Shown here: positions 16,373-35,750 of the stretch, piece by piece
How positions within the stretch are numbered: the stretch's first letter is position 1
How the letters are laid out: each line of letters begins with the position of its first letter
Assembly (NCBI GenBank): GCA_046542505.1
Contig: JBKHBH010000001.1
Coordinates: forward strand, 770 to 64,769
Reading direction: 5' to 3'
Length of the DNA stretch: 64,000 nt
Origin: Thermovirgaceae bacterium
GTDB taxonomy: Bacteria > Synergistota > Synergistia > Synergistales > Thermovirgaceae
Program-made: the position numbers and the translations under genes
Notes under the pieces: generated by a model
Databases searched by the model: none
What the model was told of the DNA's origin: nothing
The model's input: the letters and a program-made list of their open reading frames with translations, nothing else

Positions 16373-16445
16373 CAAATTGCCCTTGACAGGAGAGCAAGGG
16401 CCGGATAAAATTCCATCAATTCGGAAAGCGGAGGACAGGTTCAGG

Positions 16446-16538
16446 ATGAACGAGACGAGCCAGTTGAGCATCAGGAAGATCCGTGGCTGGTGGTGGCAGA
16501 CCTTTTTGATCTGCCCCCGAGAGCCCGGACACAGGTAA
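16446..16538 (+). CDS. trpL: trp operon leader peptide MNETSQLSIRKIRGWWWQTFLICPREPGHR (30 aa)
   Basis: ATG is preceded by GCGGAGGACAGG. Three consecutive TGG codons lie at 16488-16496. It sits about 200 nt upstream of trpE and is followed by two stem-loop + U-tract elements. Confidence 0.7.
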   Translation: MNETSQLSIRKIRGWWWQTFLICPREPGHR

Positions 16539-16553
16539 GAACCGAAAAATTTC

Positions 16554-16611
16554 AGGGCCTTGGAGGCGGATCCCGAACGGGATTCACTTCAGGGCCCTTT
16601 TTGTTTTTTTT
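16554..16611 (+). terminator. trp leader attenuator element 1 (branched stem-loop followed by a T-tract)
   Basis: AGGGCC (16554-16559) pairs with GGCCCT (16593-16598) and encloses the hairpin GGATCCC/GGGATTC (16568-16585). It is followed by TTTTGTTTTTTTT. Confidence 0.45.
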
Positions 16612-16636
16612 CGCAGGCAACCGGCGGAGTTTTAAG

Positions 16637-16676
16637 CGGGGAAGGGCCCCAAAAGGCCTTTCCCCGTTTTTTTATT
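16637..16676 (+). terminator. trp leader attenuator element 2 (intrinsic terminator)
   Basis: CGGGGAAGGGCC (16637-16648) pairs with GGCCTTTCCCCG (16655-16666): 12 bp including one G-U, with a 6-nt loop, followed by 7 T. Confidence 0.65.
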
Positions 16677-16740
16677 TCGGTTTTTTACGGATTTTGAAGG
16701 ACGAAACCCCTGAGACGGGACGAGATGAGGGAGGCGCAGG

Positions 16741-21283: not shown

Positions 21284-22470
21284 CAAGAAAAGGGTATTTC
21301 GGTGATTTCGGGGGGCGGTACGTTCCCGAAACGCTCTTTCCGGCACTGGAGGAACTTGAGGAAGCCTACAACGGCCTGAAGGAGGACCCGTCCTTTCAGG
21401 ATGAGCTGGCGGGGCTGTTGTCGAGTTATTGCGGGCGGCCGACCCCGCTGTATCTGGCCGAAAGGCTTTCGGAGTCCGTCGGCGGGGCCAGGGTGTACCT
21501 CAAGAGGGAGGACCTGAACCACACGGGCGCCCACAAGATCAACAACGCCATGGGGCAGGCCCTTCTGGCGGCCAGGCTCGGGAAGCGCCGCATCATCGCC
21601 GAGACGGGCGCCGGGCAGCACGGTGTGGCGACGGCGACGGCCGCCGCAAAGTTCGGCCTCGAGTGCCACGTGTACATGGGCACCGAAGACATGGAGCGCC
21701 AGGCCCTGAACGTGGACAGGATGAGGCTTCTGGGAGCAGAGGTGGTTCCCGTGACGTCGGGAAGCCGCACCCTGAAGGATGCCACAAACGAGGCCATCCG
21801 CGACTGGGTGACCAACGTGGAAGACACCTATTACATCATAGGTTCGGCGGTGGGTCCCCACCCCTACCCGACGATCGTCAGGGATTTCCAGCGGGTCATC
21901 GGCGACGAAACCCGCAGCCAGATCCTCGAACTGGAAGGGCGGTTGCCGGACCTTCTCGTCGCCTGTGTGGGCGGCGGCAGCAACGCCATCGGCATGTTTT
22001 ACCCCTTCGTGGAGGACCGGTCGGTCCGCATGATCGGCGTCGAGGCGGCTGGACGGGGTGTCGAAACGGGCGAACACGCGGCGACCCTTACCGCCGGTGA
22101 CGTAGGGGTGCTTCACGGGAGCCGGTCCTACCTCCTCCAGGATGAAAACGGCCAGGTGCAGATTGCCTATTCCATTTCGGCGGGGCTGGATTATCCGGGC
22201 GTTGGTCCGGAGCACAGCTTCCTCAAGTCTTCGGGCCGGGTGGAGTACACTTTTGTAACGGATACGGAAGCCCTCGAGGCCTTCAAGCTCCTTTCCAGGC
22301 GGGAGGGCATCATCCCGGCCCTTGAAAGCGCCCACGCCGTGGCGGAGCTTCCCCGCTGCGCAGGGGGGCTCCCGGAGGGAAGCATCGTCGTTGTCTGCCT
22401 GTCGGGTCGCGGTGACAAGGACATGCATTCCGTACGTCCCTATCTCATGGAAGGAGTTGAAGCAAGATGA
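21280..22470 (+). CDS. trpB: Tryptophan synthase beta chain
   Basis: ATGA overlap with trpF. Motifs [25 protein letters not shown] and [11 protein letters not shown]. Confidence 0.95.
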
Positions 22471-23279
22471 CGGACCGACTGCAGTCGGCCTTTTCCGGCA
22501 GGAAGGCCCTCATCCCCTATGTCACCGCGGGAGACCCGTCGCTGGACGTCACCGGGGAGCTCGTAAAGGTGCTCGCCTCGTCGGGAGCCGACATCATTGA
22601 AATCGGGGTCCCTTTTTCGGATCCCCAGGCCGACGGCCCCGTGATCCAGGCCTCGTCGGAGAGAGCCCTTGAAAGGGGTGCGACCCTGGGGAAGGTGCTG
22701 GAGGTGGTCCGCCGACTGAGCGGGGAGGTTGACGTCCCTCTCGTTTTGATGGGGTATTTCAACCCCGTCCTCAGGTACGGTCCCGGGCGGTTTGCCCCGG
22801 AGGCGGCGGAAGCCGGCGTGGCAGGGGTCATCATCCCCGATCTTCCCTTCGACGAAGATCCGGACTTTTACAGGCTGCTCGGGTCAAAGGGCGTGCAGGG
22901 AGTGTACATGGTGGCGCCCAACACGGCCGCGTCCCGTCTCGAGGCCCTGGGGCGGCAGGCTTCGGGCTTCGTGTATTGCGTGTCTCTCTACGGGACCACA
23001 GGCAACGCCCGCGGGCCGGTGGACCATCTGGGCGCGTACCTGGAAACCGTCAGAAAATACGTCAATGTCCCCCTTGTCGTGGGTTTCGGTATCGACGGGC
23101 CCGACAAGGCGGCGGACGCAGCGGGGCATGCTGACGGGGTCGTGGTGGGGAGCGCACTGGTCAGGATCATCGAAAGGTACGGCTCGGATACGAAGCGCCT
23201 GAAGCAAGAAACGGGAAGTTTCATGATGAGCCTCAGGGAGGCCATGGACCGAAGCGTTGCAGCCTGTGGTCGGGGCTAG
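22467..23279 (+). CDS. trpA: Tryptophan synthase alpha chain
   Basis: ATGA overlap with trpB. Motifs [26 protein letters not shown] and GFGI. Confidence 0.9.
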
Positions 23280-24364
23280 CGACACGCCCGGGAGGGGTAG
23301 ACCCCAAGGATCCGGAAGCTGAAACAGCGGGAGGCCATGATGTCCAGGGCGGGGAGAACCCTGTCGTTGCCTGGTGCGGCCTCCATGTCGACGAAGAAAA
23401 GGTATTCGAAGGGGTTGGAGACGAGGGGCCGTGACTGGATGAACATGAGGTTCGCCCCGCTGTCCCTGAGCGGTTCAAGGGCGTGAAAGAGCGAGCCAGG
23501 CTTGTGGGCCACGGTGAAAAGCACCGAGATCTTGCCCGTCTTAGGGGGTGCCATCTCACTGCCTTTGCCGATGATCCAGAAGCGGGTGGTGTTGTGGGAG
23601 TGGTCCTGGATGTTCCGGGCGAGGATTTCCAGCCCCGCCTTTTTGGCGGCGGCCTCGCTGCAGACGGCGGCGACGCCGTCGAAGTCTGCGGCTTCCAGGG
23701 CCGCTGCGCTGGTGCTTGAGGCCGGTTTCCTCGACGCCTGCGGGAGGTGCGTTGAAAGCCATATCCTGCACTGCGCCAGCGCCTGGGGGTGGGAGCGGAT
23801 TTCGGTGATGTCCCCGAGGTTTCCTCTTTTGCCTGCCAGTACGTGCCTGACGGGCATGACGACCTCCATGGCAATGGCCAGGTCCGGGCCGGCCGAGGCA
23901 AGACCGTCGAGGGAGGCGTACACTACCCCCTCGATGGTGTTTTCCACCGGGATGACTCCCAGGTCAGTCTCCTCTCTCGCTACGGCCTGGATGACGTCCC
24001 CGGGCGATTCGAAAAAGGCAATGTCGACGGATTCTCCCAGGGCCTCCAGGGCCGCCTGGTGCGAATAGGACCCCCCGGGACCGAGAGAGGCCACCAGAAG
24101 CTGTTTCTGGGCCGACCTGCACAGGGAGATGATCTCCCTGTAGACGGCTCCCAGCGAGCGGGTGTCGAGGTCAGGATGCTTCGCGGCGAGTTTTCCCATG
24201 ATTTCATGTTCTCTGGAAGGGTCGAAAATGGCACCGCCGGCTTTCGTCGCGCCGATCCTGCGGGCGATGTCACGCCGCTCTTGAAGGGCCCTGGCGATGG
24301 CTTCGTCTATGTCGTCGATCCGTGCTCTCAGTTTTTCCCGTTCTTTTTCGTCGCCTGAGGACAT
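23276..24364 (-). CDS. pheA: Bifunctional chorismate mutase / prephenate dehydratase (P-protein) with C-terminal ACT domain
   Basis: ATG 24364 follows AAAGGAGAACC. The N-terminal LRARIDDIDEAIARAL matches chorismate mutase; prephenate-dehydratase and ACT segments follow. The track ORF from 24439 adds 25 unlikely codons. Confidence 0.85.
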   Translation of the reverse strand: MSSGDEKEREKLRARIDDIDEAIARALQERRDIARRIGATKAGGAIFDPSREHEIMGKLAAKHPDLDTRSLGAVYREIISLCRSAQKQLLVASLGPGGSYSHQAALEALGESVDIAFFESPGDVIQAVAREETDLGVIPVENTIEGVVYASLDGLASAGPDLAIAMEVVMPVRHVLAGKRGNLGDITEIRSHPQALAQCRIWLSTHLPQASRKPASSTSAAALEAADFDGVAAVCSEAAAKKAGLEILARNIQDHSHNTTRFWIIGKGSEMAPPKTGKISVLFTVAHKPGSLFHALEPLRDSGANLMFIQSRPLVSNPFEYLFFVDMEAAPGNDRVLPALDIMASRCFSFRILGVYPSRACR

Positions 24365-24470
24365 GGCAGGTTCTCCTTTGGCTTTGACCGGGTTAAGTGT
24401 ACAAAAGCGTAGCCGAAAGCCCGGCTGATGGCAATGCATTTACTCCGGCCACATTGGGAAAGAATGCCTA

Positions 24471-24499: not shown

Positions 24500-24575
24500 G
24501 TTTTGTATGAATATAAACATTCATTTTTTGTAATATAATGTAACAAAATATTCTTTATCAGGAGGTCGATTGCGG

Positions 24576-25940
24576 ATGGATTTTTCACCCTGGGTTTTGT
24601 TTGTTGATCTTGGCATAGTTTCAGCGCTTATCCTGGCAGGGAAACTCATAAGGGCTAAAGTCAAGTATGCTCAGGAGTTATTCCTGCCCGCCAGCCTGAT
24701 CGCCGGATTCCTGGGCCTTGCTTTTGGTCCTAACGGTCTTGGATGGATTCCCTTCTCTTCCAACATCGGTACCTACCCGGGCATCCTTATCGCCCTGGTC
24801 TTTGGAGCTTTGCCTCTGGCCTCTGAAAAGGTCCCCTTCAAGCAGATCATAGAAAGGGTCGGGAATCTGTGGGCCTACTCCCAGATAGGCATGATCCTAC
24901 AATGGGGGCTTGGAAGCCTTTTCGGTATCCTGGTTATCGTCACAATATGGAAAGACATAAATCCCGCCTTCGGCCTCATGCTTGCCAGCGGCTTCACCGG
25001 AGGCCATGGAACGGCGGCTGCTATCGGGACCGCCTTTGAAGGTTTGGGTTGGGAAGAGGCAAGGACTCTTGCGATGACTTCAGCCACTGTGGGAGTGGTC
25101 AGCGCCATAGTCGGGGGGTTGATCATCGTCAAGTGGGGGGCCAGAAAGGGGTACACCCATTTCATAACCAAGTTTGAAGATATGCCTGGCGAACTCCGCA
25201 CCGGTCTGATTCCTGAGGAGAAGAGAGAATCCGGAGGCAAGGACACCATCTCTTCAATATCCCTTGACCCTCTTGCATTTCATGTCGCGCTGATATTCCT
25301 TGCGGCTCTCGGTGGGTATTACTGTAGCAAAATCGCGTCCGCCTACATCCCGAAGGTCAGTCTTCCCGTTTTCAGCTGCGCTTTCATTGTAGGAATCGTG
25401 ATCAGCCGGGTCTTGCAAGCCACAGGAGCTTCACGGTATGTGGATAAGAAGACCCTTGGTAGGTTAAGCGGAACTTTTACGGACCTTCTGGTTGCTTTCG
25501 GTATCGCCTCTATCAGTCTTCCTGTCGTTGTCAAATACGCAGTTCCGCTGGTTTTGCTCTTTGTCTTTGGCTTGCTGTACTGCCTGTTTATCTTCTCCTG
25601 GCTTTCACCGCGGATTCTTAAGACATACTGGTTTGAGAAAGCCATGTTTACCTGGGGATGGATGACCGGAACAATGGCTATGGGAATAGCCCTCCTTCGG
25701 ATAGTTGACCCCAAGCTGAAGAGCGAAGCTCTAGATGATTTTGCTTTTGCCTACCTGCCGATAGCTCCTGTTGAAATCCTCGTTGTAACCTTCTCTCCCA
25801 TGCTCTTTGCTACCGGCAAGGGCTGGTATTTTATTGGAGGGGCAATAGGATACGCACTCTTAGTATGGATCATCGCGCTTATGAAAGGCTGGTTTAGCTT
25901 CGCGCCGAAAGAACTGCGTGTCAAAAGGGAAGAAATTTAG
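24576..25940 (+). CDS. Sodium/glutamate symporter (GltS/ESS family)-like transporter
   Basis: ATG 24576 lies 7-8 nt after AGGAGG. The N-terminus DLGIVSALILAGKLIRAKV...LFLPASLIAGFLGL is typical of GltS. About 12 TM segments. Confidence 0.65.
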   Translation: MDFSPWVLFVDLGIVSALILAGKLIRAKVKYAQELFLPASLIAGFLGLAFGPNGLGWIPFSSNIGTYPGILIALVFGALPLASEKVPFKQIIERVGNLWAYSQIGMILQWGLGSLFGILVIVTIWKDINPAFGLMLASGFTGGHGTAAAIGTAFEGLGWEEARTLAMTSATVGVVSAIVGGLIIVKWGARKGYTHFITKFEDMPGELRTGLIPEEKRESGGKDTISSISLDPLAFHVALIFLAALGGYYCSKIASAYIPKVSLPVFSCAFIVGIVISRVLQATGASRYVDKKTLGRLSGTFTDLLVAFGIASISLPVVVKYAVPLVLLFVFGLLYCLFIFSWLSPRILKTYWFEKAMFTWGWMTGTMAMGIALLRIVDPKLKSEALDDFAFAYLPIAPVEILVVTFSPMLFATGKGWYFIGGAIGYALLVWIIALMKGWFSFAPKELRVKREEI

Positions 25941-25976
25941 TGAAGCTCAAGTATTATCGTAAGAAACGTTAAGGGA

Positions 25977-27113
25977 GTGAGTTTTTTGAAAGGGGAAAAA
26001 GTAACTTTTCTGTATCTTGACGAAGATGACATGATCAAGGCGGGCGTGCTGGATATGCCCAGGTGTGTAAACGTCATGGAAGACGTATTCAGGCTTCTTG
26101 GCAAAGGGGATTACCTCATGGGCGGTCCTCTTGGAAATGAACACGGCCAGATGCTGTGGTTCCCGAAAGAAAGCCCGTTTTCGAATATGCCTTTGGCTGG
26201 TCCGGATCGTCGGTTCATGTCTATGATCGCTTACCTAGGAGGCAAGTACAACGTATGCGGTGAAAAATGGTACGGGTCCAATGTGGAGAACCCTCGCCAG
26301 AAGGGGCTTCCCCGTTCCATTCTCATGGTGATACTCAATGACCCTGTCACCGCCGAGCCCCTTGCGATCATGTCGGCCAACCTTGTCAGCGCGATGAGGA
26401 CAGGAGCGGTGCCGGGCGTTGCTGCGAAATACCTTGCCCGAAAGGATGCAGAAACCGTTTCGGTGATAGGAGCCGGCGTGATCAACAGAGCCTGTCTGCT
26501 GGCCGTGTGCGCAGGTGTTCCGCATATCAAAAAGGCTTTGGTACATGATATTAACGAAGAACAGATAAATCGTTTCATCAGTGAAATGTCCGAACAGATC
26601 GATGCAGAACTGGTTCCTTCTCCGTCTTTGGAAGAGACCGTCAAAAACTCTGATATCATCAGCGTTGCCACTTCAGGGGCGGCTCCGGCGGAAATTCGCG
26701 AAGAATGGATCAAAGAGGGCTCTTTGATCGAACTGACTGGTGTAGCCCAGATGTCAAAGGAGCTTTACATGAAAAGCCGTATCGTGGCTGATAACTGGAA
26801 GATGCATCAGTCATGGATGACTGAGGGGAAAGAGCACCCTGATGGTATCGAAAGCATCTTGAGTTGGGCTCCGTCGGCTCCGATAATCCGGCTTTTGTTG
26901 GAAGGCCGGATAGAGCACGAGGACATTTACAACCTGGGCGATATCGTAAATGGAAGCACGCACTTTGAGAATAATGGTGAAGAACCGGTAATACTGATCA
27001 CCGGCGGCATGCCCGTCGAGGATGTGGCTTGGGCGTGGACGGTGTACCAGAATGCCCTCGAGAATGGCATCGGGCAGGAACTCCGGCTCTGGGAGTCCCC
27101 CCACTGGTTCTAG
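25977..27113 (+). CDS. Ornithine cyclodeaminase / mu-crystallin family NAD(P) enzyme (378 aa)
   Basis: Motifs KWYGSN.ENP...GLP, SAMRTGAVPGVAAKYLAR and VSVIGAGVINRA. The start is uncertain (GTG 25977 or TTG 25986). Confidence 0.6.
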   Translation: MSFLKGEKVTFLYLDEDDMIKAGVLDMPRCVNVMEDVFRLLGKGDYLMGGPLGNEHGQMLWFPKESPFSNMPLAGPDRRFMSMIAYLGGKYNVCGEKWYGSNVENPRQKGLPRSILMVILNDPVTAEPLAIMSANLVSAMRTGAVPGVAAKYLARKDAETVSVIGAGVINRACLLAVCAGVPHIKKALVHDINEEQINRFISEMSEQIDAELVPSPSLEETVKNSDIISVATSGAAPAEIREEWIKEGSLIELTGVAQMSKELYMKSRIVADNWKMHQSWMTEGKEHPDGIESILSWAPSAPIIRLLLEGRIEHEDIYNLGDIVNGSTHFENNGEEPVILITGGMPVEDVAWAWTVYQNALENGIGQELRLWESPHWF

Positions 27114-27130
27114 AGTGTTTTTTGCTTCCA

Positions 27131-27174
27131 AAAGGCAGCGGTCCCGAACTTTGTCGGGACCGCTGCCTTTTTTT
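27131..27174. terminator. Strong intrinsic terminator (bidirectional in form)
   Basis: Perfect 17-bp stem AAAGGCAGCGGTCCCGA (27131-27147) / TCGGGACCGCTGCCTTT (27154-27170) with a 6-nt loop and a T-run to 27174. Confidence 0.85.
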
Positions 27175-27216
27175 AGATACAATAAGGGTATCTGAGGAAA
27201 GAAGCGGTGAAATCTG

Positions 27217-28053
27217 ATGACAAGCGAAGAAGGGCTTGCATCGCAGCGGCGAGTGGCCCGCTATATTTTGGAAAACGGGCGGCAAGTTGCCTTCTTGACT
27301 GCCCAGGAGCTGGCTGCGGAAGTTGGGGTCAGCCTGGCTACAGTCGTACGAACTGCAGCCAACCTCGGGTTTGGGAATTATTACAACCTCAGGGGCAAAC
27401 TCAAGGAAATTCTCATGGCCTCCACGACTCCCACGTGGCTGGAACTTGAAAAGTCGTGGGAAAAACACGCTGAGAGAAATTTCTTCGACAGAATCGTCAA
27501 GGAAAACATAGAAAGTCTGAGGAAGCTGTTGGCACCAGAAACCGCTACCTCAATTGATAGAGCCGTCGATCTTCTAGACCAGGCCGAATCCATCTATGTA
27601 ATGGGCAGCCGATCCAGCAGGGCTCCTGCGTTGACCTTATACTTCGCCTTTCAGCAATTTCTATGGAACACTCATCTTCTTGGCGAAATGGGGGAGGACG
27701 ACCTTTACGAAAACCTGCTTGGGATAGATGGGAATGACGTCTTCATCGCAATTTCACATGGGTACCCCTATTACGCGGTGCAAACCATAAATGCTGTCAA
27801 ACTGGCCAGTTCGAGAGGAATTCGCGTGATTCTCCTGACAGATCATCCGAGCAATCCCTGCGTGATGCATAGCAGTGTGACGATCGTAGTTTACGGTTGT
27901 GAGGGGCATTTTTCCCTCGTGCCTCTGAATACGGTATTAGAGTCCTTAATTGTCGGACTAGGAATGAGACGCTCGGAAAAAGCGATTGACAAATTGCGCA
28001 CTCTTTGGAAAACCCTCATTGATAACGGTGTCACCCTCGGCAGGGAAAACTGA
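27217..28053 (+). CDS. RpiR-family transcriptional regulator (HTH + SIS domain)
   Basis: The N-terminal ARYILENG...TAQELAAEVGVSLATVVRTAANLGFGNY fits an RpiR HTH. A SIS-like segment YVMGSRSS...ISHGYPY follows. Confidence 0.75.
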   Translation: MTSEEGLASQRRVARYILENGRQVAFLTAQELAAEVGVSLATVVRTAANLGFGNYYNLRGKLKEILMASTTPTWLELEKSWEKHAERNFFDRIVKENIESLRKLLAPETATSIDRAVDLLDQAESIYVMGSRSSRAPALTLYFAFQQFLWNTHLLGEMGEDDLYENLLGIDGNDVFIAISHGYPYYAVQTINAVKLASSRGIRVILLTDHPSNPCVMHSSVTIVVYGCEGHFSLVPLNTVLESLIVGLGMRRSEKAIDKLRTLWKTLIDNGVTLGREN

Positions 28054-28136
28054 TTGCAGGCTGTCCCATCAGAATAGGGGGAGAAGAAACAGTATCCTTA
28101 AGCTACCGGTTTTCCGCATCCGGTCACTATTTGCTG

Positions 28137-28164
28137 TTGACAAATCGGCGAATCTCTATAGAAT
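28137..28164 (+). promoter_or_regulatory. Candidate promoter TTGACA-16 nt-TAGAAT of the aro operon leader
   Basis: Hexamers at 28137-28142 and 28159-28164, about 50 nt upstream of the leader ATG. Confidence 0.55.
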
Positions 28165-28211
28165 AAATCGACAATACACGCAAGTCATCCGCAGGGAAAG
28201 GGGGAAAACCA

Positions 28212-28373
28212 ATGGCGGGAAGCCGCGCAAACAAGCATAGCATGCTCACAAAGGGCGGATTCTATTTTTATTTTGGCGGCGGCCAGTGGCGTTATTTTTA
28301 CGCCAGTGGTCATTCAATGCATTGGAATCCGCTATCGGCTCCCCGGACTCTTCCCTCTTCAGGTGAAGCGTAG
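28212..28373 (+). CDS. Aromatic-amino-acid leader peptide MAGSRANKHSMLTKGGFYFYFGGGQWRYFYASGHSMHWNPLSAPRTLPSSGEA (53 aa)
   Basis: AAAGGGGG SD 7 nt upstream of the ATG. 9 of 14 codons at positions 17-30 are Phe/Tyr/Trp. It is followed by a terminator immediately upstream of the DAHP synthase gene. Too short for the ORF track; translated by hand. Confidence 0.65.
   Translation: MAGSRANKHSMLTKGGFYFYFGGGQWRYFYASGHSMHWNPLSAPRTLPSSGEA
28253..28340 (+). promoter_or_regulatory. Attenuator segments 1 (28253-28263) and 2 (28324-28340)
   Basis: GCGGATTC (28255-28262, overlapping the first Phe/Tyr codons) is perfectly complementary to GAATCCGC (28325-28332). Segment 2, GGAATCCGCTATCGGCT, pairs at 15 of 17 positions with terminator arm 28426-28442. 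Confidence 0.55.
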
Positions 28374-28425
28374 GCCAGAAGAAAAACACCAGTAAAGAGT
28401 CGGGAAAGCAAAACAGGAACATACC

Positions 28426-28465
28426 AGCCGGAACCGGATTCCAAATCCAGTTCCGGCTTTTTTTA
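28426..28465 (+). terminator. Attenuator terminator (segments 3:4) of the aro operon leader
   Basis: AGCCGGAACCGGATT (28426-28440) pairs with AATCCAGTTCCGGCT (28444-28458) with one mismatch. It is followed by TTTTTTT and lies 29 nt before the aroF ATG. Confidence 0.7.
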
Positions 28466-28493
28466 TTCTTTTATTCCCGGGAGGTTGAGCGAG

Positions 28494-29540
28494 ATGTTGG
28501 TCATTCAGATGGAGAAGCAGTGCAGCAGCCTTGATGTGGCAAGAGTGTGCGATCTTCTTGAGCGGAGGGGCCGGGAGACGAAAGTGGTGGGTGGCAGGAA
28601 AGCCCTCAATGTGGTGACGGCGGGAAACGGTGAAGAAAAAGACCTTCTGGCGAAACTTCCGGGCGTGGCGGCACTGGCGGCGACGAAGCATCCCTTCCCG
28701 TTGGCAAGCCGTGAAATTTTCCCGAATGACGGTGTGGTAGACATCGCCCCCGGTCTTGCCATCGGCGGAGGGAACATGGTGGTCATGGCGGGACCCTGCG
28801 CTGTGGAAAACCGGTCCCAGATCATCGAGACGGCGCGGGGTGTCAAGGCGGCCGGGGCGAAGGTTCTCAGGGGCGGCGCCTTCAAGCCGAGGACGAACCC
28901 CTACTCCTTCCAGGGTCTGGGGAACGAGGGCATCGCCCTCATGGTGGAGGCCAGGGAGGCGACGGGGCTCCCCATCGTGACGGAAATCATGTCCACCGAA
29001 GACCTTGAGTGGCTTGAGCCCCACGTGGATATTTTCCAGATCGGCTCCCGGAACATGATGAATTTCAGCCTTCTGAAGGCCGTAGGCCGGACCGACAAGC
29101 CCGTCCTCCTCAAGAGAGGCCTCATGGCGACCGTCGACGAATGGCTCCAGGCGGCGGAATACATCCTTGCCGGCGGGAACTCCCGGGTAATCCTTTGCGA
29201 GCGGGGGATCAGGAGCTTCGACAAGAGCACCAGGAACACCCTGGATTTGAGTGTGGTTCCCCTGGTCAAGTCCCTGAGCCATCTCCCGGTGATCGTCGAC
29301 CCAAGCCACGGGACGGGGCGCAGGGAGCTCATCCGCCCCATGAGTCTCGCGGCCCTCGCCGCCGGTGCGGACGGCCTGATCGTAGAAGTGCATCCTGAGC
29401 CCGACAATGCTCTTTCCGACGGCTTCCAGACGCTGGATCTGGCTGCCTTTGACGATCTCATGCAATCCATCTCGAGCCTGACGCAGATGATGAAAACCGA
29501 CGAGGAACGACGGAAATGCGCCTTGAAAATAGCAATGTAG
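28494..29540 (+). CDS. aroF: 3-deoxy-7-phosphoheptulonate (DAHP) synthase, type I-beta, with an N-terminal ferredoxin/ACT-like regulatory domain
   Basis: ATG 28494 lies 9 nt after GGGAGG. The core motifs VMAGPCAVE, LRGGAFKPRT.PYSFQG, KRG and DPSHG follow a roughly 75-aa extra N-terminal domain. Confidence 0.85.
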   Translation: MLVIQMEKQCSSLDVARVCDLLERRGRETKVVGGRKALNVVTAGNGEEKDLLAKLPGVAALAATKHPFPLASREIFPNDGVVDIAPGLAIGGGNMVVMAGPCAVENRSQIIETARGVKAAGAKVLRGGAFKPRTNPYSFQGLGNEGIALMVEAREATGLPIVTEIMSTEDLEWLEPHVDIFQIGSRNMMNFSLLKAVGRTDKPVLLKRGLMATVDEWLQAAEYILAGGNSRVILCERGIRSFDKSTRNTLDLSVVPLVKSLSHLPVIVDPSHGTGRRELIRPMSLAALAAGADGLIVEVHPEPDNALSDGFQTLDLAAFDDLMQSISSLTQMMKTDEERRKCALKIAM

Positions 29541-30400
29541 GCATCGCCGGAGTAGGCCTCATCGGCGGTTCCATCGCAGCGGCCCTGGCTTCCGGCGGCC
29601 GGTGCCGGGCCGTCAGGGGCTGGGACCGGGACCCCGAAGTCACAAACCTGGCCGTACAAAAGGGTTTTTTGCATGAGGCTTCAAACAGCCTCGAGGACCT
29701 GGCTTCATGGACGGATGTCTTTGTAGCGGCTGTACCACCCGCGGCCATCGTCGACGTAGGACGGAGGGCCTTCACCGCATCGGCCGGGAAAATCCGGGCC
29801 TTCTTCGATACGGGAAGCGCCAAACGTGTCGTCGCCAGGGAGCTTGCGCGAATCTGGCAGGACCGCTACCTCGGCTTTCATCCCATGGCGGGCAGGGAGC
29901 AAGGCGGGATAGACAACGCCGAAGCGGGACTTTTTCAAGGCTGCGTGACCGCCCTTGTGACCGATTCCGAAACCTCACAGGAGACGAAAGAAACAGCCCT
30001 GGAACTGGCGGGGGCCCTGAAATCCTCGAGGGCGGTGGAAATGGATGCCGAAACCCATGACAAGACCGTCGCCTGCATCAGCCACCTTCCCGTTTTTGTC
30101 GCCATGGCCCTGTCCATTACGGCCGGGGAATGCCAAGGCCGCCTTCCGGCCCCTGGAGAACTCGCAGCAGGGGGTTTCCGGGATACCTCACGGGTGGCCC
30201 AGGGGCCTTCCTGGCTTGTGGCCGAGATGTGGGGTCAAAACGGGGACTTTATCGCCCCCCTCCTCCACAGGGCGGCATCGCTGCTGGAAGTCATGGCGGG
30301 TTCGTCGAAAGAAGAGCTTGCAGCCATTTCGGAACGGGCGGCCCTGTCGAGGAAGTCCGTTCTCGAAGGACTGAAGGATTCAGGAGGTGAGCTTTCATGA
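29516..30400 (+). CDS. tyrA: Prephenate dehydrogenase
   Basis: VGIAGVGLIGGSIAAAL Rossmann motif, HPMAG motif, 294 aa. The start overlaps the end of aroF by 25 nt. Confidence 0.75.
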   Translation: MRLENSNVGIAGVGLIGGSIAAALASGGRCRAVRGWDRDPEVTNLAVQKGFLHEASNSLEDLASWTDVFVAAVPPAAIVDVGRRAFTASAGKIRAFFDTGSAKRVVARELARIWQDRYLGFHPMAGREQGGIDNAEAGLFQGCVTALVTDSETSQETKETALELAGALKSSRAVEMDAETHDKTVACISHLPVFVAMALSITAGECQGRLPAPGELAAGGFRDTSRVAQGPSWLVAEMWGQNGDFIAPLLHRAASLLEVMAGSSKEELAAISERAALSRKSVLEGLKDSGGELS

Positions 30401-31698
30401 AAAGCATCCAGGTGGAACCGGCAGGAGCCGCCTTGAGGGGAAAGATCACGCCTCCCGGCGATAAATCCATTTCCCACCGTGCGGCTTTTATGGGTGCCCT
30501 GTCGTCAGAGGGGATAAGTGTTTCAAATTTTTCGACGGGCGCGGATTGCGCTTCCACTCTGCGGTGCCTCGGGCAGATCGGATGCAGGGTCCTTCGTGAA
30601 GGCCACAGGGTATCGGTGCACAGGGGGAGCGAGCGCAAGGAGACGGGAGGCATTCTCGACGCGGGGAACTCGGGGACGACGGCGCGCCTCTTGTGCGGTT
30701 TTCTTGCGGGAATACCCGGCCTCTTCTCGGTGATTACCGGCGATGAGAGCCTTCGGAAACGCCCCATGGCCCGAGTCGTTTCCCCCCTCAGGACCATGGG
30801 TGCCCGCATCGACGGCCCGGAGGGCGCCTCGTCTCTCCCCTTGTCCATACGGGGGACCCGTCTTTCGGGAGGGACGTTTTCCCTCACGGTGGCCAGCGCA
30901 CAGGTGAAAACGGCCCTCCTTCTTGCCGGGCTCAACGCCCAGGGGAGTGTCACCGTCGTGGAACCGCTGCAGACGAGAGACCACACGGAGATCATGCTGC
31001 GTCATCTGGGCGTGCCGGTCCGGAGTGAGGCCGGGGCGGTCACGGTGTACCCCTGCAGCGACCTCCCGGGCGGGTCCTGGAGGATCCCCGGCGACTTCTC
31101 CTCGGCCGCCTTCTGGATTGTCGCGGCGACCATCGCCGAAGGCTCGGATCTTGTCCTCGAAGGAGTCGGGGCAAACCCCACAAGGACGGGGATATTGAAA
31201 CATCTGCAGGAAATGGGGGCGGATCTGGAATGGGGCTCCCAAAGCCTTGCCGGGGGAGAGCAGCAGGCGGACCTGAAGGTTCACAGCGCCCCCCTCGAGG
31301 CGGTTGCCATCGGCGAAAAAGACATTCCGATCATGGTGGACGAACTGCCCGTTCTGGCCGTGGCGGCGACCCAGGCGAAGGGGGTCTCCAGGATCAGCGG
31401 TGCGAGGGAGCTCCGCTTCAAGGAGACCGACCGGATCCGGGCCATGACCGAAGGCCTGAAGAAGCTTGGGGCGAAAATCCTGGAACATGACGACGGCTGG
31501 GAAATCGAGGGGCCGGTCCAGCTTCACGGGGGGACCGTGGACGGCTGCGGCGACCACAGGATTGCCATGGCCCTCAGCATCGCCGCGCTGGTCGCAGACG
31601 GCCCCGTCACTGTAGAAGGCGGCGGCTGTGTCGAAATCTCCTATCCTTCCTTTTACGATGATCTCAAGACGGTGACGGCCTGCGGAGCGGCGTCATGA
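30397..31698 (+). CDS. aroA: 3-phosphoshikimate 1-carboxyvinyltransferase (EPSP synthase)
   Basis: ATGA overlap. Motifs PGDKSISHR, LDAGNSGTTARL, RPM and DHRIAMA. Confidence 0.9.
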   Translation: MKSIQVEPAGAALRGKITPPGDKSISHRAAFMGALSSEGISVSNFSTGADCASTLRCLGQIGCRVLREGHRVSVHRGSERKETGGILDAGNSGTTARLLCGFLAGIPGLFSVITGDESLRKRPMARVVSPLRTMGARIDGPEGASSLPLSIRGTRLSGGTFSLTVASAQVKTALLLAGLNAQGSVTVVEPLQTRDHTEIMLRHLGVPVRSEAGAVTVYPCSDLPGGSWRIPGDFSSAAFWIVAATIAEGSDLVLEGVGANPTRTGILKHLQEMGADLEWGSQSLAGGEQQADLKVHSAPLEAVAIGEKDIPIMVDELPVLAVAATQAKGVSRISGARELRFKETDRIRAMTEGLKKLGAKILEHDDGWEIEGPVQLHGGTVDGCGDHRIAMALSIAALVADGPVTVEGGGCVEISYPSFYDDLKTVTACGAAS

Positions 31699-32555
31699 TC
31701 GGCGCCGGGACGCGCCTGGTCGCCCTTTTAGGCAACCCGGTCGGCCATAGCCTCTCCCCGGTGATGCACAACGCCGCCTTCAGGGAAACGGGTCTCGATA
31801 TGTGCTACCTGGCTTTTGAGGTGATCCCCGGTGACCTGGGAAAGGCCCTTGAAGGGCTCAAATGCCTGGGCGCCGTGGGAGCGAACATCACGGTACCCTT
31901 CAAGGAAAGGGCCCTGCTGTACATGGACCGGCTTGCCCCGCTGGCCGATGCCGTCGGTGCCGTCAACACCATTGTCTTCGAAGGGAAACGCGCTTTCGGC
32001 CATAACACGGACATCGACGGCATAGGGGAAACTCTCCGCCTTTTCCGGGTACCGAAGGAGCCCGTTCTGCTGCTTGGTGCCGGGGGTGCCGCGAGGGCTG
32101 CCGCCTGTGCCTTGGGCAAGGAAGGCTGCGGTCCGATATGGGTTTCCAACAGGAATTTCAAAAGGGCGGAGCAGCTTGCCGAGGACCTGGCGAGAATCTG
32201 CAAGACGCCTTTTGCGGGGGCCGTCCCCTGGGGTGAAAGGCCCCCAGAGCCGTGCCCTCTTGTGGTGAATGCCACGTCTTTGGGCCTGAAAGGGACTGAC
32301 TGGCCCGAGGGTCTGCCGGAAAAGATCCTGTCCGGGGAGGACGTCGAAGGGGTGCTGGATCTGGTGTACAGGCCTGGTGCGGTGACGCCCCTCGTGGAAG
32401 CGGCGCAAAAGCGGGGCATCGCCGCCATCGGCGGCGAAGAGGTCCTCCTCCGGCAGGGGGCGGCGGCCTTTACCCTGTTTACCGGGGTGGATGCCCCCGT
32501 CGAAAGGATGCGCCGCAGCATGAGGGAATGGACCATGCGTGATGGAAGGGGCTGA
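31695..32555 (+). CDS. aroE: Shikimate dehydrogenase
   Basis: ATGA overlap. Motifs GNPVGHSLSP.MHN, NITVPFK, NTD and GAGGAARA. Confidence 0.85.
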   Translation: MIGAGTRLVALLGNPVGHSLSPVMHNAAFRETGLDMCYLAFEVIPGDLGKALEGLKCLGAVGANITVPFKERALLYMDRLAPLADAVGAVNTIVFEGKRAFGHNTDIDGIGETLRLFRVPKEPVLLLGAGGAARAAACALGKEGCGPIWVSNRNFKRAEQLAEDLARICKTPFAGAVPWGERPPEPCPLVVNATSLGLKGTDWPEGLPEKILSGEDVEGVLDLVYRPGAVTPLVEAAQKRGIAAIGGEEVLLRQGAAAFTLFTGVDAPVERMRRSMREWTMRDGRG

Positions 32556-32561
32556 TCCGCC

Positions 32562-33740
32562 ATGGCTCTCCGCTTTTTGACGAGCGGCGAATCCCACGGG
32601 CGCGGCCTGCTGGTCGTCGTGGAAGGGTTGCCCGCAGGCCTGGAGGTTTTTCCCGAGGATCTGGAAAAAGGCCTTGCCAGGAGGCGGCGTGGATACGGCC
32701 GCGGGGCCAGGATGCGCCTGGAAAAGGACCGGCTCACTATCTGGAGCGGCATACGCAACGGCAAAACCACCGGAGCCCCTTGCGGGATCTCCATCGAAAA
32801 CGAGGAATGGGAAAAGTGGCGGCCCGTGCTCGATCCCGCCCGTCATGACGCTGCCGGTGCGACCGCCGGGAACGTGTCCTGCCCGAGGCCGGGCCATGCT
32901 GATCTGGCCGGCGCCGTGAAATACGGCCACCGGGACATGAGGAATGTCCTCGAGCGGGCGAGCGCCCGGTCCACGGCGGCCTGGACGGCGGCGGGGCTTC
33001 TTGCGGGGCTTCTTCTGGCAGATATCGGCGTGCGGGTCCGGGGCGCAGTACTTTCCATCGGCGGAACCGAGGCGGCGCCCCCTGATTCAGAAGCAGAATG
33101 GGAAACGGCCATGTCCTCGGACCTGGGATGCCCGGAAAAATCCGCTGAGGCGGCCTTTACGGAGAGGATAAAAGAGGCCGATGAAAAAAAGGACACCCTC
33201 GGGGGTGCCTTTCTCGTCTCCGTGACAGGCCTGCCTCCGGGCGTAGGATCCTATGCGGAGTGGGACCGGAGGCTCGACGGGCGCCTGGCGGCGGCGGTCA
33301 TGGCCATACCGGGGATCAAGGGCGTCGAGATCGGAGACGGGTTCCGTCTTGCCGGACTTCCCGGGAGCCTGGCTCACGATGCCATCTTCCCCGACGGGCG
33401 GGGCGGACTCGAGCGTCGGTCAAACCATGCCGGGGGACTTGAAGGAGGGATGGCCAACGGTGAAGAAGTTCTTCTGAAGGCCGTTATGAAGCCAATCCCC
33501 ACGCTCCGGAAACCCCTGCCTTCCGTTGACGTGACGACGGGCGAAACCGTGTCGGCCCATCGGGAAAGGGGCGATGTCTGTGCCGTACCGGCTGCCTGCG
33601 TTGTGGCCGAAGCCATGGTCGCCTGGATCATCGCCGCCGCGGTGACGGAGCAGTTCGGGGGTGACCGGATGGAAGACCTCCGGCGAAGGTTCAACGATTA
33701 CGTGAGTGAAGCGGGGAGGTTCCCCCATGGAAGGGACTAA
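32562..33740 (+). CDS. aroC: Chorismate synthase
   Basis: Motifs LTSGESHG, RRPGHAD and ERSSARET-like, 392 aa. Confidence 0.9.
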   Translation: MALRFLTSGESHGRGLLVVVEGLPAGLEVFPEDLEKGLARRRRGYGRGARMRLEKDRLTIWSGIRNGKTTGAPCGISIENEEWEKWRPVLDPARHDAAGATAGNVSCPRPGHADLAGAVKYGHRDMRNVLERASARSTAAWTAAGLLAGLLLADIGVRVRGAVLSIGGTEAAPPDSEAEWETAMSSDLGCPEKSAEAAFTERIKEADEKKDTLGGAFLVSVTGLPPGVGSYAEWDRRLDGRLAAAVMAIPGIKGVEIGDGFRLAGLPGSLAHDAIFPDGRGGLERRSNHAGGLEGGMANGEEVLLKAVMKPIPTLRKPLPSVDVTTGETVSAHRERGDVCAVPAACVVAEAMVAWIIAAAVTEQFGGDRMEDLRRRFNDYVSEAGRFPHGRD

Positions 33741-35337
33741 CCTCTTTCTCGGAGGCTTCATGGCTTCCGGCAAAACGGCCGTGGGCAAGGAGATTTCAAG
33801 GCTTTCCGGGCGCCCCTTCCTGGACGTGGACGGCCTTATTGAACAGAGGAAAGGCATGTCCGTGGCGGAAATCTTTGAGAGCAAGGGCGAACTTTGCTTC
33901 CGGCGCCTGGAAGCGGAAACGGTCCGTGAGGCCTGCGGGCTGGAAAACACGGTGATCGCCCTGGGCGGAGGGTCCCTCCTGAACGGGGACTTGAAAGACC
34001 TCATTCTCCAGAGGGGGAAACTCGTCATTCTTGATGTCCTTCCGGAAACAGTGCTCGAGCGCACCCGCTGTGAAAGGGACAAACGCCCGCTGCTTGAACC
34101 TCATGTGCTGAAAGACCTGATGGCAAGACGCCGCGAAGCCTATGCGTGCGGGGACTACAGGGTGCCAACGGACGGCAGGAATGTGGGGGCCCTCGCCGGG
34201 GAGATCCTGCGGCGTTTCGGCATCCGGGCCCGGTGCTCCGTCCCGGGCCGTGACAGACTGCCGGGCGATGAAAGGGTCGTGACGGGGCATATCTACGTGG
34301 GCCGGGGGATTCTCGCGAAGAAAACCAGGGAGCTTGTCGAAGGGTCTTCGGGGTCATTTTTTACCGTAGCCGACAAAATCACGGGACCTCTTTACGGGGA
34401 GGGTCTCGGAAAATCCAGGGGCGCCTTTTTGCTCCCAAGAGGCGAAGCAGCGAAGCAGCTGTCCATGGTGGAGAAACTCTGGCAGGCCTTTTCGAATTCC
34501 GGTGTGGACCGGGGCGACATGGTGGTCGCCCTCGGCGGGGGTACGGTGGGCGACGCCGCCGGGTTCGCCGCGTCGACGTGGCTGCGTGGGATCCCTGTCA
34601 TCCAGTGTCCCACCACACTGTTGGCGCAGGTGGACAGCGCCGTCGGCGGGAAGACGGGAGTCAACCTTCCCGAGGGGAAAAACCTCGTCGGGAGCTTCCA
34701 CCAGCCGCGGGCAGTGGTGTCCGATGTGGAGTGCCTCCTGAGTCTTTCATGGAAGGACTACCGGCAGGGGCTTGCCGAGGCGGTCAAGTACGGCCTGGGC
34801 GAGGACTCAGCCCTCTTGGGATGGATCGGGGAGCATGCCCGGGGATTACGGGGGCGAGATCCCGGGCTTCTTGTCGAACTTGTGGCAAGGTGCGCCGCCA
34901 TCAAGGCAGACGTGGTTCGGGAGGATGAAAAGGAGCAAAAGGGAGTCCGCGAGAGGCTTAACCTGGGGCACACAGTAGCCCATAGTCTGGAAGCCGCATC
35001 GAGGTATGAAGACTGGTCCCACGGTGACGCTGTTTCCGTCGGGATGGTTGTCGCGGCGCACCTTTCGTTCCGGCTGGGACAGTGCGAAAGGGAAACGCCG
35101 ACTCAACTGATGGAACTTCTTTCGGAACTTGGCCTTCCGGTGGCCCCCGACATCCCCTGGGAGGAAATCCAGCCCCGCCTGCTCAGGGACAAGAAGTTCA
35201 GGGGTGGGGGCCCCCGGCTGGTCCTTCCGCGGACCAAAGACCGGGCCGTCGTTCGTGACGATGTTCCGCTGAAAATGCTGCAGGAATGCTACGAGGAGGT
35301 GCTGGCATGGAACGGAGGCTCGCCTTTGCCGTGCTGA
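33727..35337 (+). CDS. aroKB: Fused shikimate kinase / 3-dehydroquinate synthase
   Basis: ATG 33727 lies 7 nt after GGGGAGG. The N-terminal P-loop GFMASGKTAVGK is followed by the DHQS motifs GGGTVGD.AGF, PTTLLAQVDS.VGGKT and LNLGHT.AH. Confidence 0.8.
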   Translation: MEGTNLFLGGFMASGKTAVGKEISRLSGRPFLDVDGLIEQRKGMSVAEIFESKGELCFRRLEAETVREACGLENTVIALGGGSLLNGDLKDLILQRGKLVILDVLPETVLERTRCERDKRPLLEPHVLKDLMARRREAYACGDYRVPTDGRNVGALAGEILRRFGIRARCSVPGRDRLPGDERVVTGHIYVGRGILAKKTRELVEGSSGSFFTVADKITGPLYGEGLGKSRGAFLLPRGEAAKQLSMVEKLWQAFSNSGVDRGDMVVALGGGTVGDAAGFAASTWLRGIPVIQCPTTLLAQVDSAVGGKTGVNLPEGKNLVGSFHQPRAVVSDVECLLSLSWKDYRQGLAEAVKYGLGEDSALLGWIGEHARGLRGRDPGLLVELVARCAAIKADVVREDEKEQKGVRERLNLGHTVAHSLEAASRYEDWSHGDAVSVGMVVAAHLSFRLGQCERETPTQLMELLSELGLPVAPDIPWEEIQPRLLRDKKFRGGGPRLVLPRTKDRAVVRDDVPLKMLQECYEEVLAWNGGSPLPC

Positions 35338-35750
35338 ACGGACCCAACCTGAATCTTCTGGGCGAAAGGGAACCCGGAGTTTACGGGAAACACTCCTTGT
35401 CCGACCTGGAGAACCTCTGCAGGAAATGGGCCGATGATCACAACGCGGCGGTGGAGTTTTTCCAGAGCAATCACGAGGGGGAGCTCATCGACCGGCTCCA
35501 GGTCCTTCATAAAAGCGTTTCCGGCGTGGTGTTCAACCCGGGGGGGTACACGCACACCAGCGTCGCCCTCAGGGACTGTGTCGCCGCTGTAGCCGTCCCC
35601 GTCGTCGAGGTGCACCTGTCGAACCCGGCGGCGAGGGAGCCTTTCAGGCATACCAGCCTCATAGCCCCCGTCGCCGCCGGGAGCATCGCCGGCTTTGGAG
35701 TCCGGGGTTATATTCTTGCCCTGGAGAGTTTTCTCGGATCTGCCTATTGA
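35307..35750 (+). CDS. aroQ: Type II 3-dehydroquinate dehydratase
   Basis: ATG 35307 follows GAGGAGG. Motifs LNGPNLNLLG.REP..YG, NPGGYTHTSVA and EVHLSN. Confidence 0.9.
   Translation: MERRLAFAVLNGPNLNLLGEREPGVYGKHSLSDLENLCRKWADDHNAAVEFFQSNHEGELIDRLQVLHKSVSGVVFNPGGYTHTSVALRDCVAAVAVPVVEVHLSNPAAREPFRHTSLIAPVAAGSIAGFGVRGYILALESFLGSAY

Follow-up and report, generated by a model that had tools for sequence, protein, structure and literature searches.

A leader with Phe, Tyr and Trp codons, predicted to attenuate transcription of the shikimate operon, is conserved across Synergistota

We describe an RNA leader in a 64,000-nucleotide stretch of the genome of a Thermovirgaceae bacterium, a member of the phylum Synergistota (contig JBKHBH010000001.1, positions 770 to 64,769; the whole stretch is hereafter the window, and coordinates are those of its forward strand). 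The leader stands directly before an operon for the common pathway of aromatic amino acid synthesis, aroF-tyrA-aroA-aroE-aroC-aroKB-aroQ, and carries a short open reading frame (ORF) crowded with Phe and Tyr codons. From its sequence and those of its homologs, we put at roughly 85% the probability that it is a ribosome-mediated transcription attenuator, which would set expression of the shikimate operon by the supply of charged aromatic tRNAs. An earlier reading of the window, made without database searches (the sequence-only reading), had recognized the logic of ribosome-mediated attenuation at this site. Comparison of 22 loci supports this in its main line: the ORF, its aromatic codons and two competing RNA helices, formed by segments 2:3 and 3:4 of the leader, are conserved among them. 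The leader element is real, and it is conserved across the phylum.

The leader reading frame and its aromatic codons

The comparison comprises the leader of the window and those of 21 other Synergistota aroF loci (handles beginning with L denote loci), with AroF identities from 95 to 54%. Eight loci, from Synergistota genomes, came from an AroF-based genome scan and ten from contigs reached via AroF homologs of 54-67% identity. One more lies on a contig reached via P0001, a hypothetical protein of a public metagenome and the only database copy of the leader peptide; that a single homolog has been called reflects how rarely such ORFs are annotated. The remaining two, L068 and L139, lie on metagenome contigs and were found by scanning for a hairpin that lies within the ORF, with the pattern CCAGTGGCG-N5-12-GYCAGTGG. 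This pattern is too short for that collection: it matched at least 120 stretches, and among the matches listed only L068 and L139 are true leaders, the others being chance. The nearest AroF, at 95% identity, belongs to a metagenome-assembled Synergistota genome, and the sampled taxa include Thermanaerovibrio acidaminovorans, Aminivibrio and Acetomicrobium.

The sequence-only reading had suggested searching relatives for leader ORFs, and the 21 further loci share the layout of the window. In all 22 leaders (for the promoter, in the 21 with enough upstream sequence) the parts follow one order. A TTGACA-type promoter is followed by a Shine-Dalgarno (SD) sequence and start codon, 11-28 unconserved codons, a Phe/Tyr block, the residues (S/T)-G-G-(Q/L)-W, two or three Tyr/Phe codons, and A-(S/T/N/G)-(G/D). 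Segment 2 comes next, then a variable hairpin containing the stop codon, and finally a terminator with its U run.

In the window, the sigma-70-type promoter TTGACA-16-TAGAAT (28137-28164) matches the consensus at 11 of 12 positions and would place the transcription start near 28171; TTGAC[AG]-N15-19-[TC]AnnnT occurs at the equivalent spot in the 21 leaders with sufficient upstream sequence, L068 included. A purine-rich SD tract, AGGGAAAGGGGG (28193-28204), ends 7 nucleotides (nt) 5′ of ATG 28212 and forms a duplex of -10.7 kcal/mol with the anti-SD. This ATG opens an ORF of 53 codons plus stop (28212-28373, stop codon 28371-28373) with the translation MAGSRANKHSMLTKGGFYFYFGGGQWRYFYASGHSMHWNPLSAPRTLPSSGEA. 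Residues 17-30 read FYFYFGGGQWRYFY, a stretch of 14 residues of which nine are aromatic (P ~3e-8 against 6.6% F+Y+W in the neighboring genes). The promoter, the SD and ATG, the 53-codon ORF, residues 17-30 and a further Trp at residue 38 were all found where the sequence-only reading had put them, although W38 occurs in the window's sequence alone among the 22 leaders. Folding of the leader, which the same reading had proposed, returned a z-score of -3.98 against shuffles for the 321-nt leader.

Translation of the leader ORF is supported by the conservation of its SD, start, frame and aromatic content. SD complementarity served to rank the candidate starts (ATG, GTG or TTG) of all three frames between the predicted transcription start and the Trp codon of the (S/T)-G-G-(Q/L)-W motif. 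In the window, the SD and start described here outscore every other combination in the 5′ region, whatever its frame; the same holds for each of the 22 leaders, and in 22/22 the start whose SD ranks first shares its frame with the Trp codon. Six ATG-to-Trp distances are seen (63, 69, 72, 75, 78 and 105 nt), every one divisible by 3. The frame of the Trp codon is free of stops from the start codon through segment 2 in all 22 leaders, against 5/22 and 2/22 for the other two frames, and its F+Y+W content is 20% versus 8% and 12%. Leaders of the family are 45-61 codons long.

The first aromatic block of the window occupies codons 17-21, TTC TAT TTT TAT TTT (F Y F Y F; 28260-28274), and is separated from the start by about 15 codons; this spacer measures 12-17 codons in 21 of the 22 leaders. 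Every homolog has two to five Phe/Tyr codons at this position, in varying order and with varying synonymous codons (FYFYF, YYFGF, YYYF, FYYF, FFQFAF and others). Aromatic positions exchange TTY for TAY and shift place, yet remain aromatic; such variation with aromaticity retained marks regulatory codons in a translated leader. Sensing of Phe and Tyr by the leader is accordingly well supported on the side of codon conservation.

Codon choice within the blocks shows some regularities of its own. The final Phe codon of block 1 (28272-28275; columns 86-89 of the 22-sequence alignment A1) is TTT in 22/22 leaders and the base after it is nearly always A; the other Phe codons alternate between TTT and TTC. 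Among the Tyr codons of the 22 leaders 66/94 are TAT, whereas the neighboring genes of the window favor TAC (43 versus 15). The excess of TAT may indicate that the wobble-read codon is preferred at sensor positions, or may merely follow from an AU-rich hairpin loop.

Competing helices and the hairpin inside the ORF

Three strands of the leader are predicted to form two mutually exclusive helices. Segment 2, UUGGAAUCCGCUAUCGGCU (28322-28340), lies within the ORF (codons 37-43) and supplies the anti-terminator's 5′ strand. Segment 3, AGCCGGAACCGGAUUCCAA (28426-28444), belongs to two inverted repeats and is common to the anti-terminator and the terminator; segment 4, AAUCCAGUUCCGGCU with a U7 run (28444-28464), forms with it an intrinsic terminator. 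In the window, 28322-28340 and 28426-28444 are 84% complementary over 19 nt, and the sequence-only reading's count of 15 paired positions of 17 for 28324-28340 against 28426-28442 holds with one G-U pair included. The terminator stem (28426-28440 with 28444-28458) is 93% complementary over 15 nt and closes a loop of 3 nt. Its T run (28458-28464) comes next and ends 29 nt 5′ of the aroF ATG at 28494, as that reading had also described. The energies in the window are -24.1 kcal/mol for the segment 2:3 duplex and -21.4 kcal/mol for the terminator hairpin.

The helices were assessed by pair counts on alignment A1 against 500 shuffles and slid controls, and these shuffle statistics overstate independence, the 22 leaders being mutually related. 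The terminator is paired in 87.7% of cells and has 7 pairs with compensatory double changes; none of the 500 shuffles was as good on all but one measure, and slid controls were 20-58% paired. For the anti-terminator the paired cells amount to 73.2%, with double changes at 9 pairs, a number equalled by one shuffle in 500; two fully compensated pairs occur in L169 (Acetomicrobium). The RNAalifold consensus retains the terminator, which is present in the full-length minimum-energy folds of 22/22 leaders. Moreover, when segment 2 through segment 3 is folded alone, without segment 4, the two segments form 12-17 pairs with each other in 22/22. These data support a mutually exclusive anti-terminator and terminator, each with compensatory changes of its own.

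Segments 2 and 3 are separated by a variable middle hairpin (28338-28409; inverted repeat 28338-28352 with 28395-28409) that encloses the stop codon and, in the window, brings the two segments close. Most homologs, though unrelated in sequence here, have a predicted hairpin that begins at segment 2's end or close to it and usually encloses the stop codon as well. The tails of the ORFs vary, and the leader stop codon lies 9-39 nt 3′ of segment 2 in all homologs. In L007 and L166 a 1-nt deletion between the in-ORF hairpin and segment 2 changes the frame, and segment 2 is read as EIRHRD rather than GNPLSA; the ORF still crosses segment 2 after the change. Since these two leaders read the same nucleotides in another frame, segment 2 is conserved as RNA and not as peptide, and the conserved aspect of translation is therefore its passage over segment 2.

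Which upstream strand competes for segment 2 is a separate question. The sequence-only reading had assigned this role to a segment 1 on the first aromatic codons, GCGGAUUC (28255-28262), which overlaps codons 15-17. In the window this pairing is indeed perfect: GCGGATTC (28255-28262) is complementary to GAATCCGC (28325-28332) at 8/8 positions. Across the 22 leaders, however, it is paired in 68% of cells and 135/500 shuffles are as good. A strong local partner just 5′ of the aromatic codons is found in about nine leaders only, namely the window's clade, L167, L169 and L171. On covariation the 28255-28262 helix is rejected as the conserved protector of segment 2, and it remains a lineage-specific feature.

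Segment 2 is instead predicted to have its conserved upstream partner in the leader's own start-codon region, CCAAUGGCGGG (28209-28219), a candidate anti-anti-terminator complementary to the 3′ half of segment 2 (28328-28338). In consensus form, CCGAUGRCGG faces CCGYYAUCGG; 78% of the cells are paired and double changes affect 5 pairs, a result equalled by zero to one shuffles in 500, while slid controls reach 26-52%. Among the upstream duplexes of segment 2, that with the start region is the best in 18/22 leaders, and the mean energy of the pairing is -16.9 kcal/mol compared with -12.7 kcal/mol for shuffled start regions. In minimum-energy folds the two pair in 20/22 leaders at the point where segment 2 emerges and in 21/22 at full length. 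Where segment 2 diverges, the start region follows: L173 matches UGUUCGGA with UCCGAACA, and lineage-specific complementary changes occur in L168 (GGGGGUGC with GCAUCCCC) and L004 (GACGGA with UCCGUC). Nucleotides +4 to +8 (RCGGN) are likewise conserved within an otherwise unconserved N-terminus. It follows from the start-region pairing that naked RNA is predicted to terminate by default.

Two further pairings were considered and set aside. The sequence GGCGG just 5′ of the in-ORF hairpin pairs with CCGCU in 86% of cells, but as a further partner of segment 2 it looks like generic CGG/CCG complementarity. A pairing of CUUUASC, at the end of block 1, with GSUAAAG 5′ of segment 3 can be seen by eye in L005, L164 and L165 only and is not general.

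The start region:segment 2 helix is the most widely predicted long-range helix of the leader, and the terminator is always favored at equilibrium. Both observations would suit an element that acts chiefly on translation or RNA stability, in which the start-region helix would switch the leader ORF off and the terminator would only end a small RNA or an upstream transcript, with no read-through governed by amino acids. We consider this very improbable. A promoter scan of 27500-29000 found no second promoter-like site between the terminator and aroF, and without one an essential pathway would stay silent behind a constitutive terminator. The compensatory changes of the anti-terminator also speak against it, and the aromatic codon blocks would be left purposeless.

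The leader contains one more conserved structure, a hairpin lying entirely within the ORF, GGCCAGUGGCGU / UAUUUUU / ACGCCAGUGGUC (28281-28311; inverted repeat 28283-28292 with 28300-28309). The invariant Trp codon (28287-28289), UGG in 22/22 leaders, sits in its 5′ arm, and the second aromatic block (codons 28-30, TAT TTT TAC, 28293-28301) makes up its loop and first stem pair. The hairpin is kept in the RNAalifold consensus structure of the 22 sequences, with an energy of -19.9 kcal/mol in the window and a family mean of -18.7 kcal/mol, and it carries two copies of the heptamer CCAGUGG as a direct repeat. It is the most conserved nucleotide stretch of the leader, synonymous sites included; since these sites are fixed, the hairpin is under selection at the RNA level. 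Our guess is that it serves as a polymerase pause or spacing element.

Such conservation could also mark the binding site of a TRAP/PyrR-like RNA-binding regulator or of a small ligand, with the ORF incidental or secondary; the choice between terminator and anti-terminator would then be made by binding instead of by a stalled ribosome. The repeated heptamer and the fixed synonymous sites fit this possibility, as does the fact that the role of the hairpin is not obvious under a pure ribosome model, in which the position of a stalled ribosome alone leaves the separation of the start region from segment 2 unexplained. We nevertheless judge it unlikely. The SD, start, frame and ORF length are kept through an unconserved N-terminus, which would be needless for a non-coding element, and the aromatic codons stay aromatic through changes of order and of synonym. 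The Trp codon is kept in L169 despite an altered pairing partner. Moreover, no Rfam family matched in the window or the nine homologous loci, the hairpin pattern occurs once in the 64-kb window (0 expected) and is absent upstream of the trp operon, and no regulator gene is a conserved neighbor of the leader: an RpiR-like gene stands nearby in the window, pheA or unrelated genes elsewhere.

Proposed mechanism and the role of Trp

In the proposed ribosome-mediated attenuator, the strong SD would load ribosomes on the 53-codon ORF of a transcript begun near 28171. With Phe, Tyr and Trp plentiful, the lead ribosome would translate across segment 2 and halt within the middle hairpin, and segment 2 would be covered by the ribosome or later captured by the start region or a local partner. 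With segment 2 occupied, segments 3 and 4 would pair and RNA polymerase would terminate at the U7 run, near 28464. A ribosome stalled anywhere between F17 and Y30 would have the front of its footprint at 28311 or before, so segment 2, which begins at 28322, at least 10 nt ahead of that front, would stay free. Free segment 2 would pair with segment 3, aided by the middle hairpin, the terminator would be blocked, and the operon would be transcribed. Without translation, segment 2 would pair with the start-codon region and termination would be the default. Sequence and comparison show the promoter, the SD and ORF, the blocks of aromatic codons, the two alternative helices with their compensatory changes and the start-region pairing of segment 2; we infer the stalling and its timing, together with what the in-ORF hairpin does and how the start region stays occupied during a stall.

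Besides the mutual relatedness of the leaders noted above, several points weigh against this mechanism. Overlap between the regulatory codons and the strand protecting segment 2, which the classical scheme calls for, is seen only in some lineages, and in most leaders the predicted protector, the start region, is not covered by a ribosome stalled at codons 17-30; the extra assumption is required of a trailing ribosome trapped on the start region. With a stop codon 9-39 nt past segment 2, a ribosome halted there leaves segment 2 unmasked, unlike in E. coli trpL. In full-length equilibrium folds the terminator and the start-region pairing win under every imposed ribosome footprint, and the decision must therefore be kinetic. 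Finally, the sole invariant Trp codon lies within a conserved stem, which clouds its invariance as evidence for Trp sensing. The claim of the sequence-only reading that a single leader senses Phe, Tyr and Trp together is well supported for Phe and Tyr by the conservation of their codons, while its Trp part is uncertain. Sensing of Trp is plausible, given that the UGG codon is invariant, that L169 keeps it despite the altered pairing partner and that L166 has two Trp codons, but it depends on one codon confounded by the stem.

For termination to be relieved, a trailing ribosome probably has to occupy the start region. Because the predicted protector is the initiation region, the decision may depend on a queue of ribosomes and not on the lead ribosome alone. 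We tentatively suggest a 'two-ribosome' attenuator that integrates the charging of Phe, Tyr and Trp tRNAs and is conserved across Synergistota, a scheme we regard as possible rather than probable. A ribosome stalled at block 1 would leave space for about one follower over the 12-17-codon spacer, and a follower trapped on the start region would keep segment 2 available to the anti-terminator. The in-ORF hairpin, which carries the Trp and Tyr codons, would act as the timer, for example by making polymerase pause.

At the amino acid level, the core of the peptide that surrounds the Trp residue is conserved phylum-wide, and Trp-containing arrest peptides such as TnaC exist. The leader peptide (GGQWRYYYASG) might therefore be imagined to stall its ribosome on a free aromatic amino acid, and not through shortage of charged tRNA, so that a high level of the amino acid would alter termination. 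This is a most improbable reading. Its direction is wrong: a stall at codons 17-30 would free segment 2, and abundance of the amino acid would switch synthesis on. The stem of the in-ORF hairpin uses the same nucleotides, which accounts for the conservation of the core peptide. Phe and Tyr interchange freely, as is typical of codon sensors and not of a specific arrest motif; moreover, the C-terminal part is read in two frames across lineages, and tails and stops vary. Sensing of charged tRNA through the aromatic codons remains the preferred explanation.

Related systems and genomic context

The architecture places the Synergistota leader beside the trpL, pheL, hisL, thrL, ilv and leu leaders, which share the combination of a promoter-proximal ORF enriched in cognate codons and a terminator overlapped by an anti-terminator. 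Some of them have mixed codons: the thr leader senses Thr and Ile, and that of ilvGMEDA senses Ile, Leu and Val. Two features set the Synergistota family apart from the enterobacterial leaders. Its stop codon lies well past segment 2 and not between segments 1 and 2, and for segment 2 the predicted conserved protector is the start-codon region in place of the regulatory codons. Pairing of the E. coli trpL ribosome-binding site with a distal leader segment, which limits translation of the leader, has been described and may be the nearest precedent for the start-region pairing.

Rfam holds no counterpart of the element. At the gathering score no family matched in the whole window or in nine homologous loci, and down to E = 10 over 27500-29000 only noise was returned, with no T-box, riboswitch or amino acid leader family; Trp_leader, Phe_leader, His_leader, Leu_leader and Thr_leader were each without a match at that threshold. 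A riboswitch or T-box fold, named by the sequence-only reading as the alternative to attenuation, thus finds no match in the window or in the nine loci. The T-box (RF00230) in particular was set aside, its covariance model giving no match to E = 10 and hence neither a specifier nor a T-box sequence by that model. The T-box riboswitches that precede aromatic operons of Firmicutes resemble the Synergistota leader in having a leader of about 300 nt, a competing terminator and anti-terminator, and a readout of tRNA charging; the Synergistota leader conserves an SD and ORF instead.

Leader ORFs upstream of aroF are on record in two other lineages. In Corynebacterium glutamicum, the small leader aroR, first noted upstream of aroF in PMC4046766, contains Phe-Tyr-Phe and controls the aroF operon by ribosome-mediated attenuation (Neshat et al. 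2014, as related in PMC11802643). Limitation of Phe raises transcription and the availability of Tyr is without effect, according to the same account (PMC11802643). This is the F-Y-F type leader that the sequence-only reading had named. The likeness is that of a short mixed Phe/Tyr leader ORF directly upstream of a DAHP synthase gene; aroR belongs to another phylum, no sign of sequence relatedness is apparent, and the distinction is drawn from its description in the literature. Compared with aroR, the Synergistota leader is long (45-61 codons), has two aromatic blocks and an invariant Trp codon, contains an in-ORF hairpin, and crosses the anti-terminator strand with its ORF; in the window it heads all seven steps of the common pathway together with tyrA.

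The second lineage is Acholeplasma, where the computational motif uORFC-13-1 was found only upstream of aroF (PMC8632094). It comprises a promoter, ribosome-binding site, start, Phe codon or codons and an adjacent intrinsic terminator, and its proposed function is to gauge how fast Phe is incorporated (PMC8632094). By its description this motif is limited to Acholeplasma and environmental sequences and has a U run that encodes at least one Phe; blocks of Tyr or Trp codons are not reported for it. An old hypothesis, cited in PMC8632094, holds that E. coli aroF-tyrA is attenuated, and generic predicted attenuators before aro supraoperons have been catalogued (PMC1173090). Our search of the literature on leaders and attenuators of Synergistetes or Thermanaerovibrio found no description of the element.

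Aromatic upstream ORFs (uORFs) also precede aroF in other phyla. About 20 loci from Thermomicrobia and other Chloroflexota (L009-L013, L015, L016, L018, L019, L021-L026, L028, L031, L032, L034 and L041) have one roughly 100-300 nt before a DAHP synthase gene of the same class, ending in ...QYWFAYYFSPPALLVGR... or ...NWYYFYFTPPALLVGR.... In more general form the endings are ...Q(Y/V)WFAYYF(S/T)PPALL(V/A)GR... and ...NWYY(F/Y)YFTPPALLVGR..., each before a stop codon; a CCGGCGUUGCUGG / CCAGCAACGCCGG hairpin follows, and several loci add GCAGAGG...CCUCUGC with a U-run terminator. These uORFs look like an independent family of mixed W/F/Y leaders, absent from Rfam. An Acidobacteriota genome has the aromatic uORF MFGQRFSFAFYYRYWRV... 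upstream of aroF. Examples in other phyla include L027 (Terriglobales), in which a GC hairpin and U run come after MFGQRFSFAFYYRYWRVAARARRAYAMQP and its stop, and L038 (Fusibacter), with ...FEYFYFFIWGFYFYSAGYFAYKK... and then a terminator; L017, L020 and L039, from other phyla, have further aromatic-rich small ORFs upstream of aroF. A mixed W/F/Y leader before aroF seems to be a solution that recurs, apparently independently, which makes the Synergistota element less unique and more general.

These comparisons temper the novelty claimed by the sequence-only reading, which knew of no three-amino-acid leader before a whole common-pathway operon: leader ORFs before aroF are known in two lineages, and mixed W/F/Y uORFs occur in other phyla. 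The kind of mechanism is known; the Synergistota leader family is new and is set apart from aroR and uORFC-13-1 as these are described. What is new in the family is its spread across a phylum, its greater length, the invariant Trp codon, the in-ORF hairpin and the predicted start-region pairing. The family would carry leader-peptide attenuation, so far known chiefly from Proteobacteria and Actinobacteria, into the little-studied Synergistota, and would be the first defined cis-regulatory element for aromatic amino acid synthesis in that phylum. A single Phe/Tyr/Trp leader before the whole common pathway would be a compact answer to the control of a branched pathway, whose shared trunk ought to react when any one of the three end products runs short. 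The start-region pairing and the codon-bearing invariant hairpin are testable departures from the textbook scheme. Moreover, the Synergistota family and the unrelated aromatic leaders, all absent from Rfam, could be added to annotation, as most gene callers overlook the ORF.

The operon itself (28494-35750, forward strand) consists of genes that overlap or lie 6 nt apart, and the NCBIfam assignments agree with the gene order given by the sequence-only reading, aroF-tyrA-aroA-aroE-aroC-aroKB-aroQ. The products are DAHP synthase, prephenate dehydrogenase, EPSP (5-enolpyruvylshikimate-3-phosphate) synthase, shikimate dehydrogenase, chorismate synthase, a fusion of shikimate kinase and DHQ (3-dehydroquinate) synthase, and a type II dehydroquinase, which together cover all seven steps of the shikimate pathway plus tyrA. 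The next gene (35782-36960) is on the opposite strand. The SD of aroF is GGGAGG (28479-28484); the frame extends upstream to a TTG at 28485, and the database protein P0002 begins at ATG 28494.

The sequence-only reading had also placed attenuation on top of an allosteric N-terminal domain of the DAHP synthase. AroF residues 11-331 align with the Thermotoga maritima DAHP synthase (PDB 1RZM), including its N-terminal region, which we take to be the regulatory domain of that enzyme; the Pfam match to a ferredoxin-like domain is weak (E = 0.13). The alignment is consistent with allosteric control of AroF in addition to attenuation.

The content of the operon differs elsewhere. At Aminivibrio-type loci (L167, L170 and L171) the leader heads a two-gene aroF-aroB unit followed by glycine reductase (GRDA) genes. 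Given such loci, the leader is tied to aroF and not to any particular operon content.

The branches of the pathway lie close by. The trp operon (trpE 16741-18288 through trpA 22467-23279) and pheA (23276-24439, reverse strand) are located 5-12 kb upstream of the leader. The trpE gene is preceded by a predicted attenuator of its own (16383-16680, forward strand) with a promoter TTGACA-17-TAAAAT (16383-16411), an SD, and an ORF of 30 codons from ATG 16447 that encodes MNETSQLSIRKIRGWWWQTFLICPREPGHR, with three tandem Trp codons. A hairpin and U run follow at about 16554-16610, and a second terminator with T7 at 16634-16669; the fold has a z-score of -5.25 and no Rfam match. From the trpE leader it follows that the organism would use the same mechanism for the Trp branch, with the mixed leader serving the common trunk. 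No obvious Phe leader was seen before pheA in its 130-nt AT-rich intergenic region.

At L163, L164 and L165, pheA is divergent and lies directly beside the aro leader. In the window three genes on the forward strand (24570-28053) stand between the two, encoding a 456-residue protein without a family match, a protein like ornithine cyclodeaminase or tyramine oxidase subunit B, and an RpiR/MurR-type regulator; together they look like an insertion.

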